DNA from: an uncultured delta proteobacterium
GTDB lineage: Bacteria; Desulfobacterota; Desulfobacteria; Desulfobacterales; JAFDCJ01
Assembly (NCBI GenBank): GCA_963769935.1
Contig: CAVYNY010000022.1
Span: 160,001 to 224,000 of the forward strand
Direction of reading: 5' to 3'
Length of the DNA: 64,000 nt
In this document: positions 247 through 19,108 of the stretch, piece by piece
Layout of the letters: each line of letters begins with the position of its first letter
Numbering within the stretch: the first letter of the stretch is position 1
Program-made: the position numbers and the translations under genes
Notes under the pieces: generated by a model
The model's database searches: none
Told to the model about the DNA's origin: nothing
The model's input: only the letters and a program-made list of their open reading frames with translations

Positions 247-267
247 TGGTGCCGAAGGCCGGATTTG
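247..267 (-). mobile_element. att-like site: 21-bp copy of a tRNA-Leu 3' end
   Basis: Minus strand reads CAAATCCGGCCTTCGGCACCA (T-arm, acceptor stem and CCA). Near-identical copy at 5047-5067. Confidence 0.8.
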
Positions 268-308
268 CCAGATAGTTAATGATTACATCAAGTTATTTAA
301 TTATAAAT

Positions 309-336
309 GAGTTTATGCGAGTTTAAGCGAGTTTTT
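309..336. repeat. Three tandem 10-bp-period GAGTTT repeats next to the att site (possible integrase arm-type sites)
   Basis: gagtttatgc gagtttaagc gagttttt. Confidence 0.45.
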
Positions 337-382
337 GTACGCTTCTGGCGGCATAATCGCATATTAAACGCATATTGAAGGA

Positions 383-601
383 TCAAGCAGCAATGGTTTG
401 CTTTTCGGTAGGTAACTTGGTTAAAATTAGCTCTTTTAGATCCATTTTACTGGAGGCATTATCGATGTCGATACCAACCAGGTTATTTTCATCATCATAG
501 TCGAGCACGACGCCTGGCGACACCTCTCTGCTTTCCGAACTCTCCTTGGCTGATAAATCAATATACATTGAATCTGTTTCTGGATAATATGATATTCTCA
601 T
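383..601 (-). CDS. DUF2283-family putative antitoxin
   Basis: MRISYYPETDSMYIDL...ESREVSPGVVLDYD...LVGIDID is the typical DUF2283 pattern. Its start overlaps the upstream stop (ATGA). Confidence 0.85.
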   Translation of the reverse strand: MRISYYPETDSMYIDLSAKESSESREVSPGVVLDYDDENNLVGIDIDNASSKMDLKELILTKLPTEKQTIAA

Positions 602-777
602 GGTTTAAATCCCCTATCTGGAAATGCATTATGGATGGTGATTTTGTCTTCCAGAGTAACGACACGAAGAAATCGACCATCAAGTTCTTCAATGGCAGCC
701 CAGAACCTGTATCTATTATGCTCCTGTTTCTCAAACCTTATCGGGTTTTTTACGAATGGTTTCGTATCCAATTTCAA
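598..777 (-). pseudogene. Toxin-like partner of DUF2283, apparently 5'-truncated (not in ORF track)
   Basis: Manual translation ...VKNPIRFEKQEHNRYRFWAAIEELDGRFLRVVTLEDKITIHNAFPDRGFKP*. Only a TTG start is available and the N-terminus looks short. Confidence 0.7.
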
Positions 778-3613: not shown

Positions 3614-3914
3614 ATGCCTATGGGAAAAGAACGAAGGGAATATGAACGGTTTCCATGCGAAACCCCAATTCTGCACGGAAAACTAGTCCCCCGATGATTT
3701 CTACAAAGGCACCATCTACAACTTCAGCAAAAGGGGATTATATTTCGAATCTGACGGAGATCTTTTAGAAGGGCATGAAGTATCAATATCAATTATTCCA
3801 CCAAAACATCAACTTACAGAGAAGTCCCATCAATATTTTGATGTCGAAATCATATGGTGCCAAAAACTATCAGGTTCATATTACCAAGTTGGCTACGGAG
3901 CAAGGTTAATCTAA
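3614..3914 (+). pseudogene. PilZ-domain protein with one frameshift (not in ORF track)
   Basis: MPMGKERREYERFPCETPI (RxxxR motif), then after an indel near 3680 DDFYKGTIYNFSKRGLYFES...FDVEIIWC...GYGARLI* (NxSxxG motif). AGGAG RBS at 3601. Confidence 0.75.
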
Positions 3915-4589: not shown

Positions 4590-4715
4590 TTAAACCGCTT
4601 CCACCGCCGTGTCGAGACCGATTTTGTTGCGGAACTTGAAGCAGTCGGCAAGGGTTTTCTCAGGGCTGTAGATGCGTATATCCACACCGTCGAGCTTATG
4701 GGTATCCACACCTGC
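4590..4715 (-). pseudogene. Type IV toxin-antitoxin AbiEi antitoxin C-terminal fragment
   Basis: Manual translation AGVDTHKLDGVDIRIYSPEKTLADCFKFRNKIGLDTAVEAV*. Confidence 0.8.
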
Positions 4716-4952
4716 CGCAATTTAAAGGTCGAGGGTGTGGACCTTTTCGGGGGCACACGCCATAGCACGGCAACAGCCCTGGGCGAGCACTTTTTCCGCC
4801 AGGAGATTATGACTGCCGGCTCAATGCACAAGACGAACAAGGCTGCGCTGCTTTATATAGAGGCGGAAAAAAATAAGAGTATCCTGGTTTATCAAAAAGT
4901 CCGGGAGATGGAGGGGAATGTTGTACAAAGCGGGAAGCAGAAGACAGGATGA
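4713..4952 (+). pseudogene. Tyrosine recombinase/integrase C-terminal remnant
   Basis: CRNLKVEGVDLFGGTRHSTATAL...MHKTNKAALLY: box II RHS, H and catalytic-Tyr region. Lies beside a tRNA-derived att site. Confidence 0.7.
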
Positions 4953-4996: not shown

Positions 4997-5004
4997 TAAA
5001 TAAG

Positions 5005-5025
5005 GGGTTGCCGATAAAGCAACCC
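5005..5025. terminator. Hairpin, possible terminator
   Basis: GGGTTGC-cgataaa-GCAACCC flanked by A/T runs. Confidence 0.5.
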
Positions 5026-5046
5026 ATTTTAATTATTAATGAATTT

Positions 5047-5080
5047 TGGTTCCGAAGGCCGGATTTAAACCGGCACGGGC
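5047..5080 (-). mobile_element. Degenerate tRNA-Leu 3' fragment / att site
   Basis: Minus strand GCCCGTGCCGGTTTAAATCCGGCCTTCGGAACCA. No 5' half of a tRNA upstream. Confidence 0.75.
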
Positions 5081-5162
5081 GCGTTCCTTTTAAGGATGAA
5101 AAATTTTAATTTCAAGAGTCATTGGCTGCAAGGATTTGATAAGTTGAGATTTACTAGAAAAT

Positions 5163-5399
5163 TCAGGTATGATTTTTATAAATTTCGATGGATCGTTTTT
5201 TATTATGGACCAGATTCAATAAACCTGATTGCCCGCTGCATTTCTCATGGAACTCCTGGGTCTTTTCCTGCCTGACGACCTGCCCGAGTTTTTCGATTTC
5301 CGCTGCAAGCGTGCCGCAGCCTGACCCTTTAATACCTTTGATGGTGGATTGTATGTTCCCGTCGCGATCGATCACAAAATGAATTTCCTTGCGTTGCAT
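5163..5399 (-). CDS. DUF2997-family protein
   Basis: KEIHFVIDRDGNIQSTIKGIKGSGC...IEKLGQVVRQEKTQEF. Adjacent to DUF1257. Confidence 0.85.
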   Translation of the reverse strand: MQRKEIHFVIDRDGNIQSTIKGIKGSGCGTLAAEIEKLGQVVRQEKTQEFHEKCSGQSGLLNLVHNKKRSIEIYKNHT

Positions 5400-5405
5400 T
5401 TCGGT

Positions 5406-5777
5406 TTACCTCCATGCTCTGGCCACCAGTTTAATGGCGCCGTCTTCAAGCGTTTCAATCGATGCCAGATTGTAGCGCAGCTCGGCCACCTTTTTTTTGA
5501 CCGTTTCAAGGCTGTACTGCTGCCTGAGTCTTTGTTGAAACCCATGGTCTTTGATGATGCGCCAATCGCTGTCGCCCACCATGTTGATTTCACCATTTTT
5601 GTGCCGGACAAATTGAACCCGCTGCGCATGGATATCAGCGAAGGCCAGTACATTGCGTCCTCTCTTTTTGTGCTTGGCATTCGGGCGAATGGATTCAATT
5701 CCCATCTCATGCAACGCGCTCAGTAAAATTTCCAAATCCGTGATGCCTTTCATCGCAATGTGTACGGTCATTGACAT
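5406..5777 (-). CDS. DUF1257 (Ycf35-like) protein
   Basis: ITDLEILLSALHEMG...MVGDSDW...LRQQYS...LEDGAIKLVARAW. AGGAGG RBS. Confidence 0.85.
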   Translation of the reverse strand: MSMTVHIAMKGITDLEILLSALHEMGIESIRPNAKHKKRGRNVLAFADIHAQRVQFVRHKNGEINMVGDSDWRIIKDHGFQQRLRQQYSLETVKKKVAELRYNLASIETLEDGAIKLVARAWR

Positions 5778-5789
5778 GAGTATTCCTCC

Positions 5790-6002
5790 TTATCCGCAAT
5801 AAAGTTGTCCCGAAATGACTTTAACCGGAAACGGTTCAGGGTTGATTTCCTCCCATATGGCCAGGATCAATTGGGAAGCCGCCGGTGAAATCCATGGGAT
5901 TTCAACACTTCCATCGGGATGAATTATCAGCTCCTGCGTCACCACGGCCTGTGAATCTGATTCTCTTAAAACAATGTCATTTGAGAGTTTGTTTTGCGAC
6001 AT
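5790..6002 (-). CDS. Small hypothetical protein ending in LYCG (start uncertain)
   Basis: ELIIHPDGSVEIPWISP...GQLYCG*. Fills the gap in a tightly packed operon, with its stop directly before the next RBS. Confidence 0.6.
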   Translation of the reverse strand: MSQNKLSNDIVLRESDSQAVVTQELIIHPDGSVEIPWISPAASQLILAIWEEINPEPFPVKVISGQLYCG

Positions 6003-7201
6003 GTGTGACACATTCCTTCCTCGATGTGACTCAAACAAAAATTGCGGTTGCAGTGAATGCAGTATTCGAGACAGCTATAACAAGTTTTTTGTCCGCAGAA
6101 TGTACATGATTCGGTCTTGCCCACCGGAAAACTCTCATGGCAGCCGATACAAAAAACGGTATGGTTGCGGCAGGAAATATCCCCTTTGGAATTGACCGCG
6201 ACGTGGTTGTTGCACCAGATTATGGTTTCTCCGCATTGATCGCAGTATCTGATGCAATTTGGACAGATGCGGCAGCCTTGTTTGCACTGAACCTGATGGT
6301 CGCGGCACACCAGCTGCCGGCACGACTCGCAATACAGGGCGTGTTCATTGCATACGGTGCGATTGCAGATTGAGCAGATATGGTTGTTTAAAACATGCCG
6401 GTCGACGATCTCGGCGCCGCATATATCACAAAGGGCGTAACAGGTTTCACAAACCAGCATATTTGAATCAGAAATGCCGAAGGACCAGGTTTCGCCGTCG
6501 CAGATATCACACCGCACCGGCGAGATGAGGCTGCCGTCATGGAGGTTGAGCACGGCCGCCACTTCTTTTGAATTACCGTTTCGTTGCAGCAGCCAAGTCA
6601 ATTTTTGAACCGGCGCCGAAATTGTCTCTACCGCAATTAAATCAATCGTTGCTTTTACCTGCGTGTATTGAATCTCCTCCCTAACCCGGCGCCTGTATTC
6701 CGCCTCCATGGCACGGGTCTCGGCCCTGTCAACACCGGCCGCATCCGACCCGAGTTGACGGTAGTATGTACCCAGCCTTTCGAGCGCCGGATACATATTT
6801 TTTAATGTTTTCTGTTGCAAATCCACGGCCTTTTCAACGATCAAATTCTCGGCAAAGCGAAAGCCGGCTTCGATAATCTGCTTGAACCGGTACAGTTTAA
6901 GGGGAGGTTTTTCCACCCACCGGATTTTTTTGTCCGCTGGGGTGATACGCTCTATTCGACGGGGTTGACGATCCGCCGGGATTTCGACGCCTTCGAGGAT
7001 TTCGACCACGTCGTCACCGATTAAGGTGATTTTCAACCAGATGCGTACGATGTCGTTCCATCCACGCCGGCATGAAAATTTTCTTTTCGAATCCCCGAAT
7101 ATCCTATATTTATCTTTTAGCATTTTCCCGGAATTCGCATAACGTGTCGGGAGTATACCATGGCGCGCTGAACCGGCAGGCACTGATTTCCGTGCTTTCA
7201 T
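5966..7201 (-). CDS. SNF2-associated protein with C-terminal multi-Cys/His zinc-finger array (YqhG-like position)
   Basis: Start overlaps the helicase stop (ATGA). The C-terminal ~170 aa carry repeated CxxC and CxxH motifs. Confidence 0.75.
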   Translation of the reverse strand: MKARKSVPAGSARHGILPTRYANSGKMLKDKYRIFGDSKRKFSCRRGWNDIVRIWLKITLIGDDVVEILEGVEIPADRQPRRIERITPADKKIRWVEKPPLKLYRFKQIIEAGFRFAENLIVEKAVDLQQKTLKNMYPALERLGTYYRQLGSDAAGVDRAETRAMEAEYRRRVREEIQYTQVKATIDLIAVETISAPVQKLTWLLQRNGNSKEVAAVLNLHDGSLISPVRCDICDGETWSFGISDSNMLVCETCYALCDICGAEIVDRHVLNNHICSICNRTVCNEHALYCESCRQLVCRDHQVQCKQGCRICPNCIRYCDQCGETIIWCNNHVAVNSKGDISCRNHTVFCIGCHESFPVGKTESCTFCGQKTCYSCLEYCIHCNRNFCLSHIEEGMCHTCRKTNSQMTLF

Positions 7202-9172
7202 GCTTCGGCTCCAATCCGGTTGACGATGGATTTAAAGCGTTGATTGCGATCGTAACAGGATCGCGCATTGATCGCATCAACGGACAGTTTGCCAAAGGCA
7301 ACCTCTAAATTCCGGCGCGACAAATTAGACAGCAAAACATTGGCGATGCGCTGTTCAAACGATCGACCGGACGGCATATGTCCTAGAATTTCATTTACCG
7401 CGCCAATCACCAATTCAAACATTCGCAGCTTTTTGGCCAGAATGTCCACGACGTATTCTTCGATGGTGCCCCGGCAGACCAGGTTGAATATAACCACCTC
7501 ATCCTGGGGCTGGCCGAAACGATCGATTCTGCCGATACGCTGCTCGATTCGTTGCGGGTTCCACGGCAAATCAAAATTGATCATGTGATGGCAGCACTGT
7601 AAGTTTAAGCCGACGCCGCCGGTTTCGGTTGAAATCAGCACGGCGGAATCCGTGCGTCCGAATCCGGCTAAGATTTCCGATCGCTGTGCGGGATTGACAT
7701 GGCCGGTCAGACGGAAGACCGGCAGCCCCAGGCAGGATATAAATTTTGTCAGACAGCCCACGCTGGTCAAAAACTCCGAAAAAATCACAAATTTTTCGCC
7801 CTGGTAGTGGACTCAGAATCTGTTTCAATGTCTGAAATTTGGACGGCAGCGTTATGCTGCCGGCGAGGTCCGCGTAGTTCAACAGGCGCGCAACCGTGGC
7901 TGGCGGATAATTCGGCCGGCGGGCGATTCGAATTAAGGTTTGGCGCACGGCTTGAGGGGTCGACATCAACTCTCTTTGCAGAGTGATCAGGCTGAGCATG
8001 TGCGTGGTCATGCCCGATTCACGCAAAACTTCATTTTTGTATTCTCCATGGACGTATCCGGTCACGGATTCATATAAACGGCTTTCGACGGCAGACGGGG
8101 TGATATGGTAAATCCCAACGCGCCGGCGCGGAAATTTTACCTTGCAGGTATCCCGGCGATTGCGGATCATAACATCCGCCAAAGCCTCTTTTAATTCAGC
8201 TTCTGTTCCGCCCACGATCTCGCGGGGACTGCCGTGCGAAACAAACCTGCGCTTAAATGTCCGAACGGTTCCCAACCGGCCGGGCTGGATAAGGTCGACA
8301 ATGGAATAAAGTTCGTCCAGTGTATTATGAATCGGCGTGGCAGACAGGGCCAGGATGAAGCGCCTTCTTATTTTTTTTACAAATTTATACAGGGTGGTGC
8401 TGCGGTGTTTCAGGCGGTGGGCTTCATCCAATACCAGAATATCCCACCGCCGGTTTAGCAGGCACGGGCGCCTTTTGGCCAGATCATAGGATACAATCAA
8501 TTTCTGCTGATTTTCTCCCAGTTCATCAGCTGAGAATAGTTGAAAATTTTCATTAAACTTATGCTGAAGTTCCGCCTGCCATTGTCGGCACAGCCCTGCC
8601 GGCACTATAACCAGGACATGCTTTGCCAGCCGTCTAATTAACAGTTCCTTGATTAAAATTCCCGCCTCGATGGTTTTGCCCAATCCCACTTCGTCGGCCA
8701 GCAGCGCCCGTCCGTGCATTTTTTTTAAAACGGTAAATGCCGTCTTAATCTGGTGCTCCAATTGTTCGATGTTTGAGGCCGTATCAAGACCAATAAGACG
8801 TTCAAATCCATTTTGGAGGTCAGACTGTTGGGCTCGGAGATGGCGCTCAAACAGATGGGGATCCTTCCCGTTTCTCCGGTAAAACAGCTTTATATCGCCG
8901 CAATTGCTTTCTATGCGAACTTCCGGCAGATTTATGCCAACAGTATTTAGCAAGAGATTGATCTCATGGGATAAATCCCAGCGGATGCCGCAGCGCCAGC
9001 ACTCTCTGACGCCGCATTCACCGGACAGGGTTTCAAAGCGTTCGACACTGTCCAGCCAGCCGCATTCCGGGCACGTCCTGGCGGCGAAGGCCGTTTTGGG
9101 TTTTTGGCCTGCCTGATCAATATCCGTCTGTTGCGGGATCGTTATCCATTCAAACCGACCGGATCTTACCAC
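7198..9172 (-). CDS. SNF2/RapA(YqhH)-like helicase with N-terminal Zn ribbon, one frameshift near 7808
   Basis: LLADEVGLGKT, DEAH, SATP, GGVGLNLQ, FDLPWNPQRIEQRIGRIDRFGQ. Removing one C joins ORFs 7571-9172 and 7198-7788 as LSHYQGEKFVIFSEF. Confidence 0.9.
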
Positions 9173-10721
9173 TTCGCCATTGCCTCCGTTCTTGTTCCAG
9201 TTTGTCGTTGGATGCCGGTCTGGCCCGGGTCAGCGCCCATGTTCTGAGGGCTTGAACATTTTCCGCCATGGTGATTGAAAGCGGTACGGTGATCTCAATA
9301 CTTTGCAGGATGTCAGCGGTTGACAGGGGACGGTTTTCGTCAAAGGCATTGTAAAGTCCGTCGATGACGGCCTGCTCAATTTCAGCGCCGGAAAATCCGG
9401 TACATTTTTCGGCCAGCAGCGCAAGGTCGAAATCACGCGGACTGCGATTTCGCTTGGTCAAATGGATGCTGATGATGGACTGCCGTTCGCCCAATCCCGG
9501 CAGATCGAGAAAAAAGATTTCATCCCAGCGTCCTTTGCGGATCAGCTCAGGGGGCAGCGATGTAATGGTGTTGCCCGTCGCAAAGACAAAGACCGACGCT
9601 GTTTTTTCCTGCAGCCAGGTTGCCAGGGAGGCAAAAACTCGGGCGGCTGTACCGGCATCGGAGTTGGATGAACTGCCGACTCCGGCCATTGACTTTTCGA
9701 TTTCATCGATCCACAAAATGCAGGGTGCCAAGGCCTCCGCCGTGCGGATGGCCTGCCGGGTATTTTCTTCCGAGCCGCCCACCCGGCTTGAAAACAGCTT
9801 GCCCGTATCCAGGCGCAGCAGGGGGAATTTCCACAAAGCGGCGCAGGCTTTGGCGGTCAGGCTTTTGCCGCAGCCTTGGATGCCGAGCAAAAGAATCCCT
9901 TTGGGATGGGGCAGGCCGTAGGCCCTGGCTTTTTCCGTGAATGCCCGCTGCCTTTTGGATAACCAGGCCTTTAAATTCTCAAGTCCGCCGACTTGCTCCA
10001 TGGTTTCGCGGGCGTCGAAAAATTCAAGGATTCCGGTTTTTTTAATTATCTGTTTTTTGCTCGCCACGATTTCATCGATCAGCTTCGAATCTATGATGCC
10101 GCTGCTTTTCACTACGGCCCTTGCCAGACAGTTTTCGAATTCATCCATGGTCAGGCCCTGACCGGCGTTGATGAGCCGCTCCCGGTCAGCACTGTTCAAC
10201 TCTATTTTGACTCGCCGGCCTTCCAGGGTGCTTATAACAGATGCCAGGGTTGAGGACAGGTCCTCTTTGGCAGGCAGCGCAAAATCCAACAGGTAGATTT
10301 CATGCTCCAGTGCAAGGGGCAGCTCGCGAATCGGGGACAGGATAATAATGCTGTTATGACTCTCCTTGAAATGCCGGGCAACGTCTTTTAAAAGCCGCTG
10401 CACCAGCGGGTCATTGATGACGGCCTGGAAATCCTTCAGCAGGAAAATGCCTTCATCAGGCTTGCTCTGCTTCAGGTGCTCGAGCAGCGCAACCGGGTCC
10501 TTCAACTGATCCCGGATCTCACCGACCTTCCTTTTTTGCCATGGTTCATTCTTCAGGGCCGGGGCAATCCCGTAAAGACCTGAGCTGATCGTGTGGATCC
10601 ATAATTTGCGTCGAATCCTGCTGCATATGCGCTCGAGTTCTTCTACGAAGCGAGTTTCTTCGGGGCTGACCACGTAAATGATCGGATAGTTTGCCAATAT
10701 GCAAAGCTCGATTTCAGTCAT
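9150..10721 (-). CDS. Ycf46-type AAA+ ATPase
   Basis: YPIIYVVSPEE N-terminus, VGGLENLKAWL, Walker A GIQGCGKS, Walker B ILWIDEIEK, LIRKGRWDEIFF. Confidence 0.92.
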   Translation of the reverse strand: MTEIELCILANYPIIYVVSPEETRFVEELERICSRIRRKLWIHTISSGLYGIAPALKNEPWQKRKVGEIRDQLKDPVALLEHLKQSKPDEGIFLLKDFQAVINDPLVQRLLKDVARHFKESHNSIIILSPIRELPLALEHEIYLLDFALPAKEDLSSTLASVISTLEGRRVKIELNSADRERLINAGQGLTMDEFENCLARAVVKSSGIIDSKLIDEIVASKKQIIKKTGILEFFDARETMEQVGGLENLKAWLSKRQRAFTEKARAYGLPHPKGILLLGIQGCGKSLTAKACAALWKFPLLRLDTGKLFSSRVGGSEENTRQAIRTAEALAPCILWIDEIEKSMAGVGSSSNSDAGTAARVFASLATWLQEKTASVFVFATGNTITSLPPELIRKGRWDEIFFLDLPGLGERQSIISIHLTKRNRSPRDFDLALLAEKCTGFSGAEIEQAVIDGLYNAFDENRPLSTADILQSIEITVPLSITMAENVQALRTWALTRARPASNDKLEQERRQWRSGKIRSV

Positions 10722-10756
10722 GTTAGAATTCTTCTATGAAGAGGTTCATTCGTATG

Positions 10757-11517
10757 GGTTTCAGGTTTCACCTGTAATTCGTTAATTCCTAATTTCTAAA
10801 TGCCGACACCTTATATGAAACTACATCTCACACAGAGCGCTCAGAGGTCACAGAGGTTCGGGTTGGCAGCCGCCTGCGGCAAAAGAAAAATGTTCTCCGC
10901 GGCCTCTGTGAGCTCTAACGGAGTGGGCGTGATAGTAAATCCGACTGAGCCCGAATTTCCAAAAGTTTCTTTCTCGATTAATCTGGCCGTCTTTTGGGCC
11001 AGCGGCCCGGCTCGTGTGAAACTTCAAATAAAGGTATGTGGAATGGATTCGATTTTTATTTTTGTATAGACAGGATTAACAGGATTATCAGGAATTTTTT
11101 CGCCTGCGGCGAGGGGCCTTTCGGCCGAAGGCCGCATTATCCTGACGATCCTGTTGATCCTGTCCAATTATTTTTTTTAAAAGAAGAATCCATTCCTCTT
11201 TTTCTTTCCAATTTTAAAGTTTTTATCTGTTCAGACTGGATGCTTGCGGCCAGAGGCGGTGCTCATATGAAAATTCATCTGATTTAGAGTTATATTTCGG
11301 TTGAAGTTAATGTCTGGTGGGAGTGGTTTCCAACCTCGATTTTAGATGGCGGTCCGACCGAGTTCATCGCGGTTGCCTCCAGCCCGTAGGGCTTACGCCC
11401 CGGAAGGAAAACCGCTCCCACAAGATCCTTAAACTGTTATCAGGTTCTATATAAGTTTCTTTTTTGATCAGTCCGTCCGTTGTCTTGGCCGGCAGTTGGG
11501 CTGACACCTGAAACCTT
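10757..11517. repeat. Cluster of nested palindromic and REP-like intergenic repeats
   Basis: Several inverted-repeat units (cacagag/ctctgtg, gacaggattaacaggat/atcctgttgatcctgtc) and three diverged copies of an '...atcaga/aatctggcc...tggccagcggc...tgaaac' unit. Confidence 0.7.
11317..11421. repeat. REPIN-like element GTGGGAGTGG...CCGCTCCCAC with an internal insertion
   Basis: Same termini as 52297-52369. Confidence 0.7.
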
Positions 11518-11583
11518 TTAAAAACCTAGTATATTCAGACATTCCTGTGTATCCTGTCTGAAAAAAAGATAGAATTGAATAGA

Positions 11584-12336
11584 TCATAGATCGGAGCCTA
11601 ATAATTGTTTAATCCACTGCCGATACATCACCTCCGAATTCGGCACAACCGGGGGAAAGCGGCTCAACCAGTGAGTGCGGATTTTATGTTTGGTCGGAAC
11701 CCAAAAGATGTGATTATTCATTGGCCGTAGATTTACAGATGAAGGCAGCTTCTCAATTATCGTCGATGTCTTAGCTGGATATAGGGGACACAGCTTCGAG
11801 GATTCCATGGTCTTTGCCAGAGCATATTTATCCAGGGCGGCCTGCTGGTAACTTCCCTTTTCTGATCTGAAATAGGAAAACCAATAGCGCTCGCCTCTTT
11901 TCAAAGAAGCCAGTGAATAATTCATCAATCCAATGCCGAAGAGGTGGCATCCAAGATATGCCAGGCGGCGGTCCAAACTTTCAGACCGGCAGCCGGCGTA
12001 ATCCACAGCGCATTTTAAAAGTCCGGCAAGTTGATGAACATCGCCGGTTCCGAGGCTGTTTCCCTTCACATGGACCACGGTGCCGGTCCAGCGGTTTGAC
12101 AGCTCCAGCAACTCTGCCAGGTTCTGAAGATCGGTCTTTAAGGTAAATATGCCTCTGGTAACCGTTTTTCCACTTTCCCGAAGCAAATCATAGCGTTCCT
12201 GGGCCCGATCCAGCAGAACAAGTACGCGGTCTTCATCTTTCCTTGCGGCAGGTTTGCGGTCTATCTCCACCGACACCCACCAACCGCGATCTTTCCATTC
12301 TTTTTTGTGTTTCAACATTGAGCACACAGCGGTCAA
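11584..12336 (-). CDS. Hypothetical protein with Cys motifs (LGCH, LCP)
   Basis: 250-aa ORF co-oriented with the flanking locus. No family recognised. Confidence 0.7.
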   Translation of the reverse strand: MTAVCSMLKHKKEWKDRGWWVSVEIDRKPAARKDEDRVLVLLDRAQERYDLLRESGKTVTRGIFTLKTDLQNLAELLELSNRWTGTVVHVKGNSLGTGDVHQLAGLLKCAVDYAGCRSESLDRRLAYLGCHLFGIGLMNYSLASLKRGERYWFSYFRSEKGSYQQAALDKYALAKTMESSKLCPLYPAKTSTIIEKLPSSVNLRPMNNHIFWVPTKHKIRTHWLSRFPPVVPNSEVMYRQWIKQLLGSDL

Positions 12337-12394
12337 AGATTCGTGGTAATTCGTGTCAATTCGTGGTTAAGTAATTTGCGGTGAATGTTTGTAT

Positions 12395-12413
12395 TGTTCG
12401 ATGATAACGAACA
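12395..12413. promoter_or_regulatory. Palindromic operator candidate TGTTCG-N7-CGAACA
   Basis: TGTTCG ATGATAA CGAACA about 60 bp upstream of 12336. Related site at 14213-14231. Confidence 0.65.
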
Positions 12414-12443
12414 GTTAAGGCAAAAAAATATAACTAAAGGGTC

Positions 12444-12730
12444 AACCCTAATTGAGCGAAAGTCGAGGGTGCCCCAGCTTCAAGGCGTCCAAGAGTGAAG
12501 CTGTAGTTGCCTACCGCAAACCCTTGGCAACGCAGAAGATGGGGTGCCATCGGCTTTCCCGCGTTGTTTTCAGGGTAAACAAAATGGGATTTAAAATGGA
12601 CATTTACATCTGATTTATATTAGAATTAAAATTCACATAAGAAGTAAAATTTATAGAGAAAATATGAACATACATCGTAATATCAAAAAGATAAAAACCC
12701 ATCCCATTTTGTTTACGATCATTTAGGGTT
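12444..12730. mobile_element. MITE-like element containing a nested AT-rich element (12575-12716)
   Basis: Outer inverted repeat AACCCTAATTGA / TCATTTAGGGTT (11/12). Inner perfect 16-bp inverted repeat GTAAACAAAATGGGAT / ATCCCATTTTGTTTAC. Confidence 0.65.
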
Positions 12731-13561
12731 TAAGCCATCACATATGACGCCTTCCAAGACAATCTTAGCCTGAGTTTCATTTTTCACCAACCCCAGATCC
12801 TGCAGCCGTATAATCATCGCCTGTTTGGACACATTGAAGAAGCCGCCGGCCTCTTTGATCAAACCGGCAATCTGCGGCCAGGTTTCAACACAAGGATCAA
12901 AACACAGGGGCCCGCAAAAGGCGCTTTTGACATTGTATAGGATCAACGGCTTGGCGCCGTAGCATTTATAAAAGGCATCTTTAACCGCTGTTTCCGGCAT
13001 CAGCATGCATGACGCGAAATAATCCGCCTGCCATTCGATGGGTTTTTTGGCATCCCTGATCCGGCAGAAAATAAAGCCACCGATATGATCCTGTAAAGCG
13101 TTCGGCGAAATTGCGCCGCAGCCATCCGCCTTTGAGTTCTGCCCGAGGTCTGACTCGAAATCGTTAAGGTCTGCTGATTCTAATCTATTGCGGCGATGGC
13201 GAATGAAGCCGCCACCGGTTCGGCAGGCCTGGTCGACCAACTTCCGGTGCAAAACCCAGTGGCCGGTCTCGTGGGCAAAGGTGAAACTCAGCCGGCCTTC
13301 ATTTTGATTTTCCGCCAGACTTTGATCGACACAGATCACGCCTTCCCTGACGTAAGTGGCGCCGAGGACATCATCCAATTTCAGCTTTTTTCTAAGATCG
13401 ATGAATCCCAGCCTCAGGCTCAGGCCGCGTTCGATGATTTTTTCAACCGGGATCGGCGGCTGAACACGACGTTTTATTTTTGCTTCATAGTCGGTAAGCA
13501 CACCGGCAGCCGCAGCCGCAATTGATTTTTTAGTCAGCCAGGGAACTTTTAATTGTTGCAT
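12719..13561 (-). CDS. ImmA/IrrE-family Zn metallopeptidase
   Basis: PPIPVEKI, GRLSFTFAHETGHWVLH (HExxH), EWQADYFASCMLMP, FNVSKQAMIIRLQDLG. Confidence 0.92.
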   Translation of the reverse strand: MQQLKVPWLTKKSIAAAAAGVLTDYEAKIKRRVQPPIPVEKIIERGLSLRLGFIDLRKKLKLDDVLGATYVREGVICVDQSLAENQNEGRLSFTFAHETGHWVLHRKLVDQACRTGGGFIRHRRNRLESADLNDFESDLGQNSKADGCGAISPNALQDHIGGFIFCRIRDAKKPIEWQADYFASCMLMPETAVKDAFYKCYGAKPLILYNVKSAFCGPLCFDPCVETWPQIAGLIKEAGGFFNVSKQAMIIRLQDLGLVKNETQAKIVLEGVICDGLNPK

Positions 13562-13617
13562 GATTTCAGCTCACTTCAAAATATGAAATATAAGATGAAA
13601 AAGTGCACAGCAATAAG

Positions 13618-13712
13618 TAATTAATCCGCCGGGCCTTGGAATTAGCAATTCTCTTCGGTTTTTAAGGATCAAATTACAACCCTGAATGGGTTATTTTTCA
13701 GGGCGGATTAGT
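13618..13712. mobile_element. ~95-bp MITE-like element, TAATTAATCCGCC family
   Basis: Terminal inverted repeats. Relatives at 19117, 30507 and 41886. Confidence 0.7.
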
Positions 13713-13832
13713 GATTACGGAATGCAGATTGTGAATTATAACAAAATGGGAAATCCGTGAAGATCTGTGAAAATCTGCCTGCCTTGTGAAATTTATATCT
13801 CATTTCACCGGGGTGTCCCATATTAAATAAAG

Positions 13833-14189
13833 TTACTCCTTTTTACCCAATTTTGCAGCTTCCGCCAATTTGGTGAGTGTATCCCAGTCGTCACTGTCGA
13901 ATTTTTTTTCCCGGGCCATTCTTAAAAAGTCGGCTATTTCCGGTTCACGGGCAACGTAGCGGGAAATTTCCGGATCCATTTTTTGAGCTGAGTTTAAAAG
14001 TTCCTTTTTGTCTACATACAACGCCGCCGCAATCTTTAAAAGAACGTCTTCTGAGGGGGGCGGAACATGGTCATGTTCCACATCACTTAAATATCCGGGA
14101 GATTTGTTGATGAGACGGGCCAGTTCCCTGAGCCCGACGTCAGCATGTATTCTGAGATCGCGTAATTTTTTACCAAAGGTGTCGGTCAT
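13833..14189 (-). CDS. XRE-family HTH transcriptional regulator
   Basis: TFGKKLRDLR...GLRELARLINKSPGYLSDVEH...PPSEDVLLKIAAAL. Directly upstream of ImmA/IrrE. Confidence 0.92.
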   Translation of the reverse strand: MTDTFGKKLRDLRIHADVGLRELARLINKSPGYLSDVEHDHVPPPSEDVLLKIAAALYVDKKELLNSAQKMDPEISRYVAREPEIADFLRMAREKKFDSDDWDTLTKLAEAAKLGKKE

Positions 14190-14212
14190 AAATTGTTCAA
14201 GTAAGGCATTTG

Positions 14213-14246
14213 CGTTCTATCCTATCGAACATTAATATTTTGTCAA
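14213..14246 (-). promoter_or_regulatory. Sigma70-like promoter of the XRE gene with an operator overlapping the -10
   Basis: Minus strand TTGACA-16nt-TAGGAT. TGTTCG ATAGGAT AGAACG spans the -10. Confidence 0.65.
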
Positions 14247-14793
14247 GAGGAAAATTCTTTGTTGAATTTTTTTTTAATGTTGCTTATCTTGTGCTCCGAA
14301 TGGTTTCAAAGTACAGGGTTCAGAGGTTTGGGGCTGCGCGCTGCGCGCTTCCGACTTCGCTCTTCGAGCTACGACGGGACAAGACGACCCCAGAGGCAGG
14401 GTTCAGAGGACAGACGACAGCTGTCAGGGGTCAGAAGATAAATTACAGAGGACGGACAATCGAATTCGGAAATCGGACCCGCCGTCGTCCGATAAGACGG
14501 GGCTGTGGCGCGGCAAGCACGGGGAAGGCGGGAAAAAAGCCGAAGGTGGGAGAAGGAACGAATCGATTATTGATATCAGATTTCGGATTGTGAATCGGAG
14601 CAGCAAAGGGCGGAGGGCAAAGGCTATGAAAATTGTTTATCCCATCAGGTCTCACTTCTAATTCCCTTAAGTTGAACTCCGCGTCTCCGCTTCCCAGCCT
14701 CCGGACCTCCTGGCTTTCCCGCTTTTCTGCTGTGATCTATCAACCATCAACTCAACAAAAACAACAAACTCGAAAAACGCATTTGGAGATGCC

Positions 14794-15946
14794 GTGGACA
14801 ACATCCGTACCGTACAATTAAATTTGCCGCCGGGGAGGATTGATTTCGGGGTCGGCCAGCCGAGCCCGGCGTTGCTGCCCCTGGCGCTGCTGAAAGAAGC
14901 GGCCGCGCAACGATTGAACAGCCGGGATGCTTCTTTGCTGGCGTATGGCGCCGAGGAGGGTGACGGATATTTCCGTCTGGCGCTGGCCCGGTTTCTCAGC
15001 GCGCATTATCAAGTGCCGGTCGATTTTGATAGTCTTTTTATCACCGCCGGAGCGTCCCAGGGACTGGATCTGATTTGCACGCTGCTCAGCCGGCCCGGTG
15101 ACACCATATTCGTGGAAGAGCCAAGCTATTTTCTGGCCCTGCGAATTTTTGCCGATCACGGGCTGAACATTGTCAGCCTGCCGATGGATGCACACGGTTT
15201 AATTGTCGACGCCGTCGAAGAAAAACTAACCCGGCAGACGCCCGCTTTCTTATACACAATCCCGACCTTTCACAATCCCTCCAGTGCGACCCTTGCAGCC
15301 GACCGGCGCGATCGGCTCGTGCAATTGAGCCGGCAGTATAATCTATTGATAATAGCAGATGAAGTATACCACATGCTGTCCTATTCGGATGCCCCGCCCA
15401 AGCCCCTGGCAAGCCATATTGACAACAGCTCCGTGCTTTCTCTGGGATCTTTTTCAAAAATTATGGCCCCCGGGCTGCGTCTGGGGTGGATCCAGGGGGG
15501 TGCCCAATTGCTGCAACGTTTCACGGGCTGCGGACTGCTTGACAGCGGCGGCGGGCTGAATCCCTTTACATCGGGCATCATTCGCAGCGCCGTTGAAAAC
15601 GGTCTGCTGGAAAACCAGCTGCGGAACCTGATAACCGCCTACAACCGGCGCAAAACCGCCCTGGCCGATGCCCTGAGGGATAGCCTGCCGGAGACGAGTG
15701 CATTTTGTCGAACCCGGCGGGGGCTTTTTCATCTGGCTGGAATTCCCGGAAAAAATCGACACCAATCATTTGCTGGCTGCCGCTTTTGAACAAAACGTCG
15801 GTTTTTTACCGGGCATGAAATTTTCCGCACATAAAGGACTGAAAAATTTTGCCCGGTTGAGCTTCTCATATTATGATATACCAGAGTTGGAGGAAGGCGC
15901 CCGGCGACTGGGGAAGGTTATCAAAGAGTATATAAATGATGAATGA
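14794..15946 (+). CDS. PLP-dependent aminotransferase (class I/II, ARO8/MocR-like), frameshift near 15700
   Basis: ITAGASQGLD, YTIPTFHNPS, IIADEVY, GSFSKIMAPGLRLGW. C-terminus (EPGGGFFIW...RLSFS) lies in ORF 15698-15946. Confidence 0.9.
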
Positions 15947-15951
15947 AGAAT

Positions 15952-16050
15952 GATGCTGGATACTGGATGCTGGATACTGGATGCTGGATAAACTGGGTAT
16001 GATACTGGATAGGTGAAAGGTTAATGGTAAAAGGTCAAAGGCGCAGGAGG
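15952..16050. repeat. Heptamer tandem arrays (CTGGATR)n then (AAAGGY-type)n
   Basis: gatgctggatactggatgctggatactggatgctggata. A similar composite occurs at 44741-44854. Confidence 0.8.
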
Positions 16051-16152
16051 CACACTTCAGTCTTTTAAAATAGACTTGTCATCCCGCTCCATCGGGAGCG
16101 CAAGGCTCACGGCGGTGGATATAGATCCTATTTGGATTTGGAGATACACCCT

Positions 16153-19108
16153 ATGGTTAGAAAATCCAGCTCTTTTAACAGCGATAGAATTCAAGTGTCC
16201 GATATCGACATAAAATGGGATACGAAGCAGGGGGTGTGCACTTTTGAAGACCTGCCGGTCGCCATGATGTGGATCGATTCAACGCTTGCAGGTTTCATGT
16301 CAGGTGTTCAGGCAATGGTCGGCACCGAGCGTTTCGGCCTGGCCCTTCAGAGTGAAGGGCGAAAAAGTGTCGAGGCTGATTGGCAAATTATCACCCGATT
16401 CGCAGATTTCGCCGCAGGTTTCAGGGCCATTGCCAATATCGCCGCGGTCGCGGGCTGGGGCGACTGGGAATTGATATTACTTGATGAGAAACAAAAGCGA
16501 TGTCAAATCAGGGTCCGGAACAGCTGGGAAGGTCTTTATCAGAAAGCTCTGGGAGTTTGCTGGGGCAGCGGCATGTTGGCGGGTAAAATGGCCGGTTACT
16601 GTACAAAACATTTTGGCACCAACTGCTGGGCTGAGCAGAAAAAATTCATCGCCAATGGGGATGATTTTGATGAATTCCTAATAGTACCTTCGGAGCGCAC
16701 GGTAGAAGAGGAGATTGAAAATCTGCTGGCAACCGATGAGGCCACCCGAGCAGATATGGCGGTGGCTCTGGAAAAGCTAAAAAGGGAAATCTCGGTTCGG
16801 GAGCGGGCCGAAAAAACACTGCGGGAATCTGAAGAAAAATATCGCCGTCTCGTTGATTTATCTTTTGAAGGCATCGGGATTCACTGCGAGGGGAAAATCG
16901 TCTACATTAATAAAACCGGTGCAGAACTTATAGGTGGAGGCTCCCCTGAAGATATTATTGGCAAGCCCGTGCTGGATTTTGTTCATCCGGACTATAGAGA
17001 TTCTGTTATAAAAAGAATGCAGACATTAGAGGCTAAAGGAATTGGGGCGGCTATTGATGAAGAGAAATTTATCGGAATCGATGGACGAGAGCTTACCGTG
17101 GAGGTTGCAGGGGTTCCGATGGTTTACCAGGGAAAACCAGCTATCCAGGTGTTTTTCGTGATATAACCGATCTCAAGCGGAAAGAGAAGCGTTGAGGGAA
17201 AGTGAGGAGCGGTTTCGTACGCTGACGAAAGGACAAGTGATTGGATATGGGAAGTGGACCGAAACGGCATTTACACCTATGCCAGTCCCAAGGTGAAAGA
17301 TTTACTGGGATATGAATCAGATGAGGTTATTGGCAAGACGCCATTTGCATTTATGCCCACTGACGAAGGCAACGAGTTAGTCGACTATTTCAAAATATCA
17401 TCCGGTCCAAAAACCTTTTCAAGGCTAGAGAATACTTGCATTCACAGGGAGGGGAGACAAGTCACGCTTGAGACCAGTGGTGTCCCCATTTTGATACCGA
17501 CGGAAATCTGCTCGGATATAGAGGTGTTGATCGAGATATTACGAAACGTAAACAGGCCGAGGAGGCATTGCGGGAAAGTGAAAGAATATCGGCTCCTTAT
17601 CGAAAACATTCCCTCCGTTGCCTGGGTTACCAGTCAGGATGGCCGAACCGTTTTCATCAGTTCAAATGTGGAAAAAGTATATGGCTACACTGCTGATGAG
17701 ATCCTATCAAAAGGTAAAGAACTTTGGTTGGACAGGGTTCACCTCGATGATCGAGATCAGGTAAAAGAAGCCTTTAGAATGCTGTTTGATCAGAAAGTTC
17801 AATATAACGTAGAGTACAGGATTCAGCGAAAGGATGGACAATGGATTTGGATCCACGACAGGGCCAACATTGTTGAAGAGCAGGCGGGAGAACATTTTGC
17901 CTATCGGGGTGTTCTCGGATATCACCGAGCGCAAGCGCGCGGAGGAGGAAAAGGAGAATTTGCAGTCCCAGTTGCAGCAGGTTCAGAAAATAGAGGCGAT
18001 AGGAACGTTTGCCGGCGGCATTGCCCATGACTTCAACAACCTGTTGATGGGAATACAGGGCCGTGCTTCGCTGATGTCGGTGGAGTTGAATCCCTCCCAT
18101 CCCCACATCGAACATCTTAATGCCATTGAGGAATATATCCAGAGTGCCGCGAATTTGACCAAGCAACTGTTGGGTTTTGCCCGAGGCGGGAAATATGAAG
18201 TAAAAGCCATCGATATGAATGAATTGGTGCGAAACAGCGCGTCGATGTTCGGCCGGACAAAAAAAGAAATCAAGATCCACACCAAATTGCAGTATCATCC
18301 GACTCCCGTGGTGGAAGCCGACCGGAGGCAGATCGAGCAGGTGCTGCTGAATATGTATGTCAACGCATGGCAGGCCATGCCTGCCGGCGGGGAGCTGTAC
18401 CTGGAAACAAAGATCGTACAGTTGGATGATGAATACTGCAAGCCGCATCAGATAGAACCAGGACGGTATGTCAAGGTGTCGGTCACGGATACCGGCATCG
18501 GCATGGACGAAACCACCCGGCAGAGAGTTTTCGACCCGTTTTTCACGACCAAAGAAAAGGGCCGCGGCACCGGTTTAGGGTTGGCCTCAGCTTACGGGAT
18601 TACAAAGAACCACGGCGGCATGATTACAGTCTACAGTGAGATCGGCCGCGGAACCACATTCAACATCTATTTGCCGGTATCTGATAAGGAAGAGTATCGC
18701 GAGAGTCCCGTGGCAGGAAAGCTGATCAAGGGATCGGAGAACATTCTGCTGGTTGATGACGAAGAGATGATCATCGATGTGGGCCGATCAATGCTGGAAA
18801 AGTTGGGCTATCGTGTAGTTGTTGCCAGGGGCGGCCAGGAAGCCTTGGACGCTGTCAGCAACATGGGAGAAGAAATCGATTTAGTGATCCTTGACATGAT
18901 CATGCCCGGGATCGACGGCGGCAAGACCTTCGATCGCATCCGTGAGATTCAGTCGCTGATGCCGGTGTTACTTTCCAGCGGTTATGCCATCAGCGGCCAG
19001 GCAGATGAAATCATGCGCAGGGGATGCAACGGGTTCATTCAAAAGCCGTTCAACATCTTCGAGCTTTCCCAACTGGTTCGAAAACTTCTGGATGAGGGGA
19101 AAACCTAA
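16153..19108 (+). CDS. Hybrid sensor histidine kinase (V4R/XylR-N-like, three PAS, HisKA, HATPase, receiver), several frameshifts
   Basis: GGIAHDFNNLL, FDPFFTTKEKGRGTGLGL, ILLVDDEE, DMIMPG. PAS motifs are spread over three ORFs. Confidence 0.88.

Follow-up and report, generated by a model that had tools for sequence, protein, structure and literature searches.

What does a cell gain when a repressor and its candidate protease stand ahead of a Ycf46-type AAA+ ATPase operon? The question is raised by a 64,000-nucleotide (nt) stretch from an uncultured delta proteobacterium (G000:C22:160001-224000, hereafter the window), in which nine co-oriented genes occupy positions 14189-5163 of the minus strand. 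From 5′ to 3′ they encode an XRE-family repressor, an M78 (ImmA/IrrE) metallopeptidase, orf250, the Ycf46-type ATPase, an SNF2 ATPase, a Cys-rich YqhG-like protein, orf82, DUF1257 and DUF2997 (Table 1); the final six overlap one another or are separated by at most 12 nt. The switch is of a known kind, and the cargo that it carries is uncharacterised. As a tentative overall reading, to which we give slightly less than an even chance, stress would act through the peptidase to release XRE from the DNA, and the cargo would then aid stalled or damaged replication.

Conservation of the cassette

Strong Ycf46 matches were obtained in 41 relatives, among them three genomes with full-type cassettes (G022, G015 and G032). 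All nine genes stand in the same order in G022, in G015, which has one additional open reading frame (ORF), and in the metagenome locus L122; G032 lacks only the XRE orthologue. This recurrence argues that the gene order is not due to chance; the nine co-oriented genes described in the initial annotation are real. L122 is the complete copy among eight metagenome loci, L119, L121, L123, L124 and L125 are consistent partial copies, L120 holds orf250 only and L126 gave a weak match. Several of the copies with the SNF2 and YqhG-like genes (below, the motor) are nearly identical, so the motor-bearing cassettes represent about six independent lineages.

The distribution is patchy: three of the 23 genomes of the genus have the cassette. 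At the level of the order, taken here as Desulfobacterales-like, orf250 was found in five of 401 genomes, the fifth being G737, which keeps orf250 and has no motor. The peptidase profile matched 17 of the 401. Twelve new peptidase loci comprised five six-gene cores (XRE, peptidase, Ycf46, orf82, DUF1257 and DUF2997), six loci with dnaB as cargo, and one unrelated locus that has no operator. The G728 sequence is masked where XRE would lie. Upstream of the six-gene core of G580 (L213:1114-5026) there are short repeat units suggestive of a CRISPR (clustered regularly interspaced short palindromic repeats) array.

Operator-like sites and the switch

A 19-bp palindrome with the consensus TGTTCGAT-N3-ATCGAACA occurs twice at the cassette, once over the -10 region of the XRE promoter and once 5′ of the cargo operon. 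Shuffled versions of window positions 5000-14400 contained 0.08 such palindromes against the two observed, and the strict consensus is found at these two places alone in the 8.0 Mb of G000. The combination of TTGAC and palindrome also precedes XRE in G022, G015, G737, L119 and L122, and precedes the peptidase gene in G032. The position of palindrome 2 is kept in G022, G015, G737, L119, L121, L122, L124 and L125, and the site is doubled in G032.

Perfect palindromes were located at the cassette in 2/2 cases in G015, 2/3 in G022, 2/4 in G032 and 1/2 in G737. In five further genomes all nine palindromes fell at the cassette and none was found in the reversed control, with a pattern that had been tuned on those sites. 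Eleven of the 12 new peptidase loci carry an operator palindrome. Outside the cassette, G000 and nine further genomes have only a few scattered matches, which points to a private regulon of the switch; a global, SOS-like or DdrO-type genome-wide DNA-repair regulon was ruled out on this ground. XRE would very probably bind both palindromes and so control itself and the cargo operon. The proposal that the Ycf46 trio is under an XRE plus ImmA/IrrE switch thus gained support from the linked genes and from operator-like sites common to the XRE and cargo promoters. An extra consensus-like palindrome in G032 lies within a coding gene. A perfect TGTTC-N9-GAACA at 9240-9258 falls within the coding part of Ycf46, and no relative was found to have it. 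G000 also has a LexA-like ORF, recognised by motif only.

All 18 peptidase sequences retain the HExxH motif with its downstream Glu, and XRE and peptidase are co-oriented with the cargo in all copies. By analogy with ImmA/IrrE-type families, XRE likely represses and the M78 peptidase likely cleaves it. CapP and IrrE sense single-stranded DNA through a groove that includes a GAF domain (10.1101/2022.04.27.489752; 10.64898/2026.05.16.725639). A profile search found no GAF domain in the peptidases, which are 225-321 residues long and end after a short segment resembling a helix-turn-helix (HTH). The window peptidase is too short to hold such a domain. A 140-residue HTH protein encoded upstream in G032 was considered as the missing repressor and is not an XRE orthologue.

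The switch also precedes a second dnaB gene

In six genomes belonging to three families the same XRE/M78 switch and operator lie 5′ of dnaB. The cargo dnaB is a second genome copy in 5/5 genomes checked; each of the five orf250/Ycf46 genomes has a single dnaB. This switch-dnaB arrangement is apparently undescribed. Because the same switch is placed ahead of a spare replication helicase, the Ycf46 cassette likely answers stalled or damaged replication.

A predicted split RapA-like motor

Walker A, DEAH and motif VI are intact in the SNF2 protein, and RapA is its best relative among solved structures by profile comparison. The match begins at profile position 93 (RapA residue ~111), and a zinc ribbon is present upstream instead. 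This ribbon is absent from the other SNF2 genes of the genus, whose matches begin at position 104 or later. The model of the L122 partner protein (predicted local distance difference test, pLDDT, 92) gave RapA as the sole match at E ≤ 0.001 (best 1.8e-7, root mean square deviation 7.7 Å), from which we infer that the YqhG-like partner corresponds to the C-terminal part of RapA. The two proteins are predicted to form a split RapA-like double-stranded DNA motor related to YqhH/YqhG. PF11079 matched 2/55 aligned partner homologues (best E 1e-4) and did not match the window protein, which has ~70 N-terminal residues fewer than the G022, G032 and L122 versions. In E. coli, rapA is ciprofloxacin-inducible and SOS-independent (PMC12871841).

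The QMTLF tail of the partner resembles the β-clamp-binding consensus Q-phi-x-L-F (10.64898/2026.05.27.728225) and is predicted from its sequence to be a tether to the β sliding clamp. QxxLF within the last 12 residues was found in 7/12 full-length close homologues, two of which (P0054 and P0055) resemble query sequences, a point that counts against the tether; two others and a single short form have near-matches. The motif was found in 0/135 distant partner homologues, against a background of 13/5586 of the genome's own ORFs. The clamp-like motif and the DnaB swap each point, separately, to the replication fork.

In all full copies the motor genes lie inside the Ycf46 core with overlapping stops and starts. 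The motor-less G737 has a 77-residue stand-alone ORF homologous to the SNF2 zinc ribbon (E 1.6e-12); a search with this stub returned only itself and a search among shorter proteins returned none; the stub could thus be left over from a deletion. The YqhG-like profile had no match in 400 genomes of the phylum, a sample that did not include the known carriers, and the viral contigs yielded only generic SNF2 relatives in the 8/40 loci inspected. In G008 (L189:6698-9746) a lone SNF2 gene with a short YqhG-like partner, lacking ribbon and QxxLF, lies beside a restriction-modification-like locus.

The Ycf46 core and the orphan proteins

No Ycf46 profile matched the 523-residue ATPase, which we take to be a Ycf46 from its DUF1257/DUF2997 context. 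The twelve switch-linked ATPases all fall in one clade (support 100/99). Their pore-loop-1 residue is R, Q, E or A in 12/12, and Y or F occurs in 14/85 family sequences; the missing pore-loop aromatic argues against a classical unfoldase that threads its substrate as Cdc48 or ClpB does. More widely, Ycf46 homologues were found on 82 plasmids, 17 other Ycf46 loci (cluster 8) include a superfamily 1 (SF1) helicase, and 40 of 87 clustered loci have a radical SAM gene, which no cassette has. Severe stress induces a ycf46 operon of cyanobacteria (10.1101/2025.07.21.665879).

For comparison a distant set of 82 Ycf46 loci was used (79 came from the 80 best of at least 589 matches, and three from relatives), many of which end at a contig edge. 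Profiles for SNF2, the YqhG-like partner, orf250 and orf82 found nothing in these 82 loci, which gave one weak XRE and one weak peptidase match. In the cassettes the regulators are linked to the trio, in keeping with the initial annotation; the helicase is not a fixed part, being absent from the distant loci and from six switch-linked genomes.

Wherever a switch-linked Ycf46 cassette covers its place, orf82 is there. A motif scan of the 82 distant loci found Cys-Gly look-alikes beside Ycf46 in L028 and L036; in the latter (L036:3-3164) a small protein ending in Cys-Gly lies between a tandem Ycf46 pair. orf82 had no Atlas match, and its candidacy as a DUF2997 paralogue was dropped (13 aligned columns only, probability 39%). 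Homologues of orf250 form 53 clusters and include one close homologue from a Desulfobacterales bacterium; no Pfam, PADLOC, NCBIfam or Atlas family matched it. Its model (pLDDT 89.9, best Z 6.4) shows an N-terminal ferredoxin-like/ACT-like fold only. An assignment of function by fold was abandoned, since searches of PDB and viral folds returned just this common N-terminal fold and barely covered the C-terminal half.

Proposed function and alternatives

In the mechanism that we propose, XRE would sit on the two palindromes and silence its own gene and the Ycf46 operon. Replication or DNA stress would activate the M78 peptidase by an ImmA-like route that does not involve a GAF domain, the peptidase would cleave XRE, both sites would be freed and the cargo operon would be expressed. 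The motor, tethered by QxxLF to loaded β clamps, would displace proteins from nearby DNA, while Ycf46 with orf82, DUF1257 and DUF2997 would remodel protein complexes, probably by a route other than classical threading. The motor would be an accessory and may dock on the core via its zinc ribbon. That stress triggers induction is reasonably likely; replication rescue as the output of the cargo is possible, and we hold it with some reserve. In its fullest version this scheme would be a replication-rescue regulon that is gated by a protease, does not depend on LexA and can exchange its cargo, carrying a spare DnaB or else a Ycf46 AAA+ machine physically coupled through the zinc ribbon to a clamp-riding split RapA motor; that version we consider improbable as a whole. 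Such a coupling would have a counterpart at eukaryotic forks, where p97 partners with a clamp-tethered SNF2 protein. Of the roles raised in the initial annotation, the response to DNA or replication stress has gained evidence through the DnaB swap and the clamp-like motif; the anti-phage role, for which no effector domain was found, is its main rival.

Several observations weigh against a replication-rescue function. The motor is absent in six genomes with a switch-linked Ycf46 core, namely G737 and the five six-gene cores. The motor-less G730 groups inside the motor-bearing genus (99/99) and G032 outside it, so repeated loss is the simplest reading, and the motor was probably lost more than once. 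Within the motor, the zinc rod and QxxLF are missing from the truncated partners of G022 and G015, and the partner N-terminus is missing in G000 and G015; this patchy loss suggests a module under loose selection. Several QxxLF variants have no aliphatic second residue. In the profile alignment the SNF2 protein does not include the RNA-polymerase-binding N-terminal domain of RapA, which in RapA pulls the polymerase clamp open (10.1101/2024.09.28.614012). The switch raises difficulties of its own: G032 has operators and no XRE orthologue was found there, the cassette peptidase has no detected GAF domain, and a GAF-less ImmA was not stimulated by single-stranded DNA (PMC12828697). Many cassette neighbours are toxin-antitoxin (TA) genes (G000, L119, L122, G674) or restriction genes (type III restriction-modification, with an AAA_21 ATPase, in G737). 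Extra dnaB copies are typical of mobile elements too.

These neighbours, together with the patchy distribution, would also suit an inducible anti-phage or anti-plasmid system, in which a CapH/CapP-like switch controls Ycf46 and SNF2 as effectors and the clamp motif aims the motor at invader forks. CapH/CapP-like pairs usually stand ahead of defence operons (10.1101/2022.04.27.489752), the SNF2 protein is nearest to the DrmD/BrxH profiles in PADLOC, and the plasmid-borne Ycf46 homologues and SF1 helicase partners could be read in the same way. Against this, none of the cargo genes was found to encode a nuclease, NADase or membrane-effector domain, and all NCBIfam defence profiles scored far under their cut-offs (DrmD 238-265 bits versus 610-950; IetA 68 versus 510). 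The cargo is co-oriented with its regulators, whereas CapH/CapP operons, as far as that source describes them, are divergent, and the alternative cargo, DnaB, is no known immune effector. We regard a defence system as unlikely. It is quite improbable that the locus is a remnant of mobile-element control, an ImmR/ImmA-type switch that formerly set the timing of the element's replication (dnaB, clamp-tethered motor, Ycf46) at little gain to the host. The GAF-less peptidase with XRE does resemble ImmA/ImmR, distant XRE/peptidase pairs were found on viral contigs, the extra dnaB copy would fit, and the window copy lies in an insertion flanked by argG and an aminotransferase gene, a place left empty in 6/6 congeners having both genes, adjoined by tRNA-Leu scars and an IHF-like gene. 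However, operator, Ycf46 and DnaB are all lacking from the 12 viral peptidase loci. The flanks listed, as judged from ORF starts and a scan of some of them, showed no gene for an integrase, capsid or conjugation, and several families of the order conserve both operators and catalytic motifs.

A further possibility concerns the coupling of the parts and is compatible with either a stress or a defence role: the YqhH/YqhG-type motor and the Ycf46 core may be independent modules that share a promoter, co-regulated and not in physical contact. The motor is missing from the six switch-linked cores and from 82/82 distant loci, and the SNF2/YqhG-like pair stands alone in G008. Yet in all full copies the motor genes are embedded in the core with overlapping stops and starts, and the zinc ribbon, which the other SNF2 genes of the genus lack, persists as the short ORF of the motor-less G737. 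Independence of the modules seems rather unlikely to us.

Relation to described systems

ImmR/ImmA of the Bacillus subtilis element ICEBs1, CapH/CapP of CBASS (anti-phage signalling that relies on cyclic oligonucleotides) and DdrO/IrrE of Deinococcus likewise pair XRE with an M78 protein that has HExxH and Glu, and have palindromes over promoters. The cassette differs from all three in its cargo, a Ycf46 operon or a dnaB gene. Its peptidase has no detected GAF domain, unlike CapP and IrrE; its switch is co-oriented with the cargo rather than divergent as in CapH/CapP; it has a two-site private regulon where DdrO has a global one; and none of the integrative and conjugative element genes that go with ImmR/ImmA were seen at the cassette.

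The motor has in common with E. coli RapA (HepA) the RapA-type SNF2 core and a partner with the fold of a part of RapA, and with Bacillus YqhH/YqhG (Pfam PF11079) an SNF2 gene directly followed by a YqhG-like gene. In contrast to RapA it is made by two genes, and a zinc ribbon replaces the polymerase-binding N-terminal domain; relative to both, it adds the long zinc rod, the QxxLF tail, the Ycf46 operon setting and the protease switch. Cyanobacterial and plastid Ycf46 share the AAA+ protein and its neighbours Ycf35 (DUF1257) and DUF2997, and the cyanobacterial operon is reported as stress-regulated. The cassette proteins form a separate clade, with a dedicated switch, the Cys-Gly peptide, orf250, a polar or small pore-loop-1 residue and an optional DNA motor, and have no radical SAM gene. 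DISARM DrmD, BREX BrxHI/HII and Iet (IetA) have related SNF2/AAA folds; their scores are far under curated cut-offs and their partner genes are absent from the cassette.

PADLOC, as proposed earlier, and NCBIfam gave fold-level matches only, and no system of this architecture turned up in the searches. The literature found, including PMC4284462 and PMC6123443, holds no description of the cassette; supplementary neighbourhood tables of CapH/CapP-like pairs could list it. Nor does that literature give a mechanism for Ycf46/Ycf35/DUF2997, proteins that persist in plastids, in many bacteria, in archaea and on plasmids. With operator, repressor and protease as an on-switch, with its natural deletion variants and with two hints at the replication fork, the locus makes the function of the Ycf46 module directly testable. 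It also connects YqhH/YqhG, another orphan pair, with a defined regulator. If the replication-rescue regulon were true, it would give the Ycf46/Ycf35/DUF2997 orphans a first concrete role.

Assembly, flanking region and feature coordinates

The SNF2 gene reported in the initial annotation is real and is split in this assembly into two frames (7571-9172 and 7198-7788) by a one-base frameshift near 7814. It is a single frame of 649-657 residues in G022, G015 and G032, and a near-identical contig from run X1 (855 nt, 8 substitutions) has one base fewer at 7814. One low-depth X4 record spans the position with no gap. The frameshift is probably an assembly error, and a true SNF2 pseudogene is unlikely given the intact genes of the three relatives and the X1 contig. 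At 12765 the X1 and X2 contigs have one base fewer than the assembly, probably a second assembly error, which alters the last residues of the peptidase.

The ~860-nt gap between orf250 and Ycf46 is dense in multicopy repeats, which at 10800-11520 have dozens of copies genome-wide, often as inverted pairs. A contig from run X2 jumps over 10733-11600, and orf250 almost abuts Ycf46 in G032, L119 and G737; the block is an insertion outside the system. Further repeats of this kind lie near 12450-12700, 13600-13800 and 14340-14600.

Table 1. Features of the cassette and of the dnaB-cargo loci. Positions are those of the window unless a locus is named.
Feature	Position	Strand	Evidence
XRE promoter: TTGACA 14246-14241, -10-like TAGGAT 14224-14219, overlapping palindrome 1 at 14213-14231	14213..14246	-	sequence
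XRE-family HTH repressor, 118 residues	13833-14189	-	Pfam HTH_31/HTH_3; PADLOC capH E 4e-9; orthologues 58-92% identical
M78 (ImmA/IrrE) metallopeptidase, HExxH and downstream Glu, no GAF detected	12719-13561	-	profile matches, conserved motifs
Operator-like palindrome 2, TATCAT -10-like core, 5′ of cargo operon	12395-12413	-	sequence, relatives
orf250, orphan with conserved Cys; true start probably later than 12336	11584-12336	-	homologues, structure model
Inserted multicopy repeats	10800-11520	.	genome-wide copies, X2 contig
Ycf46-type AAA+ ATPase, 523 residues	9150-10721	-	Walker A, Walker B and Arg finger intact
Minimal RapA/YqhH-type SNF2 ATPase, N-terminal zinc ribbon	7198-9172	-	profile comparison, motifs
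YqhG-like partner: RapA-like domain, zinc-finger rod (32 Cys), C-terminal QMTLF	5966-7201	-	homologues, L122 orthologue model
orf82, small protein ending Tyr-Cys-Gly; start probably later than 6038	5790-6038	-	conserved in cassettes
DUF1257 (Ycf35-like)	5406-5777	-	Pfam E 9e-7
DUF2997	5163-5399	-	Pfam E 6e-12
Degenerate tRNA-Leu(GAG) 3′ end, flanking scar, absent beside other copies examined	5046-5078	-	sequence match
dnaB-cargo loci	L204:10055-11500, L205:549-3250, L206:9420-12210, L210:7498-10024, L211:9590-12150, L212:1-2570		

The whole 14.5-kb region is bounded by argG and a pyridoxal phosphate-dependent aminotransferase gene. These two genes are adjacent, with no insert, in six of nine congener regions, and the remaining three have no argG nearby. 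The L122 cassette is at the same site, and G022 has the aminotransferase side in common. A tRNA scan found no tRNA gene in the 64,000-nt window, and the tRNA attachment site that had been proposed reduces to a degenerate 33-base 3′ end, with a 30/33 match at 5046-5078 to the genome's own tRNA-Leu(GAG), and this end is not common to the other copies examined; a 19/20 match lies at 247-266. A tRNA-integrated island was accordingly rejected, as no tRNA gene was found in the window or in seven cassette-bearing loci (of 13 scanned) and the other copies sit elsewhere. The TA/Abi debris noted earlier is present, as a DUF2283 gene at 383-601 and an AbiEi-antitoxin fragment at 4593-4721, and an IHF-like gene is also found in the flank. 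Window positions 247-628 and the region beside the real tRNA-Leu (G000:C22:547177-552554) have in common degenerate tRNA-Leu(GAG) 3′ ends and a DUF2283 copy, 90% identical, a likeness that suggests an old rearranged island.

The variable flank includes a pentapeptide-repeat gene (943-1602) and a PilZ fragment (3687-3911). At 14794-18450 the aminotransferase and PAS/histidine-kinase genes appear split over several frames, as happens with assembly indel errors. According to ARAGORN, G000 encodes tRNA-Pyl (CTA) at C11:285724-285797 and tRNA-Sec at C3:6328-6425.

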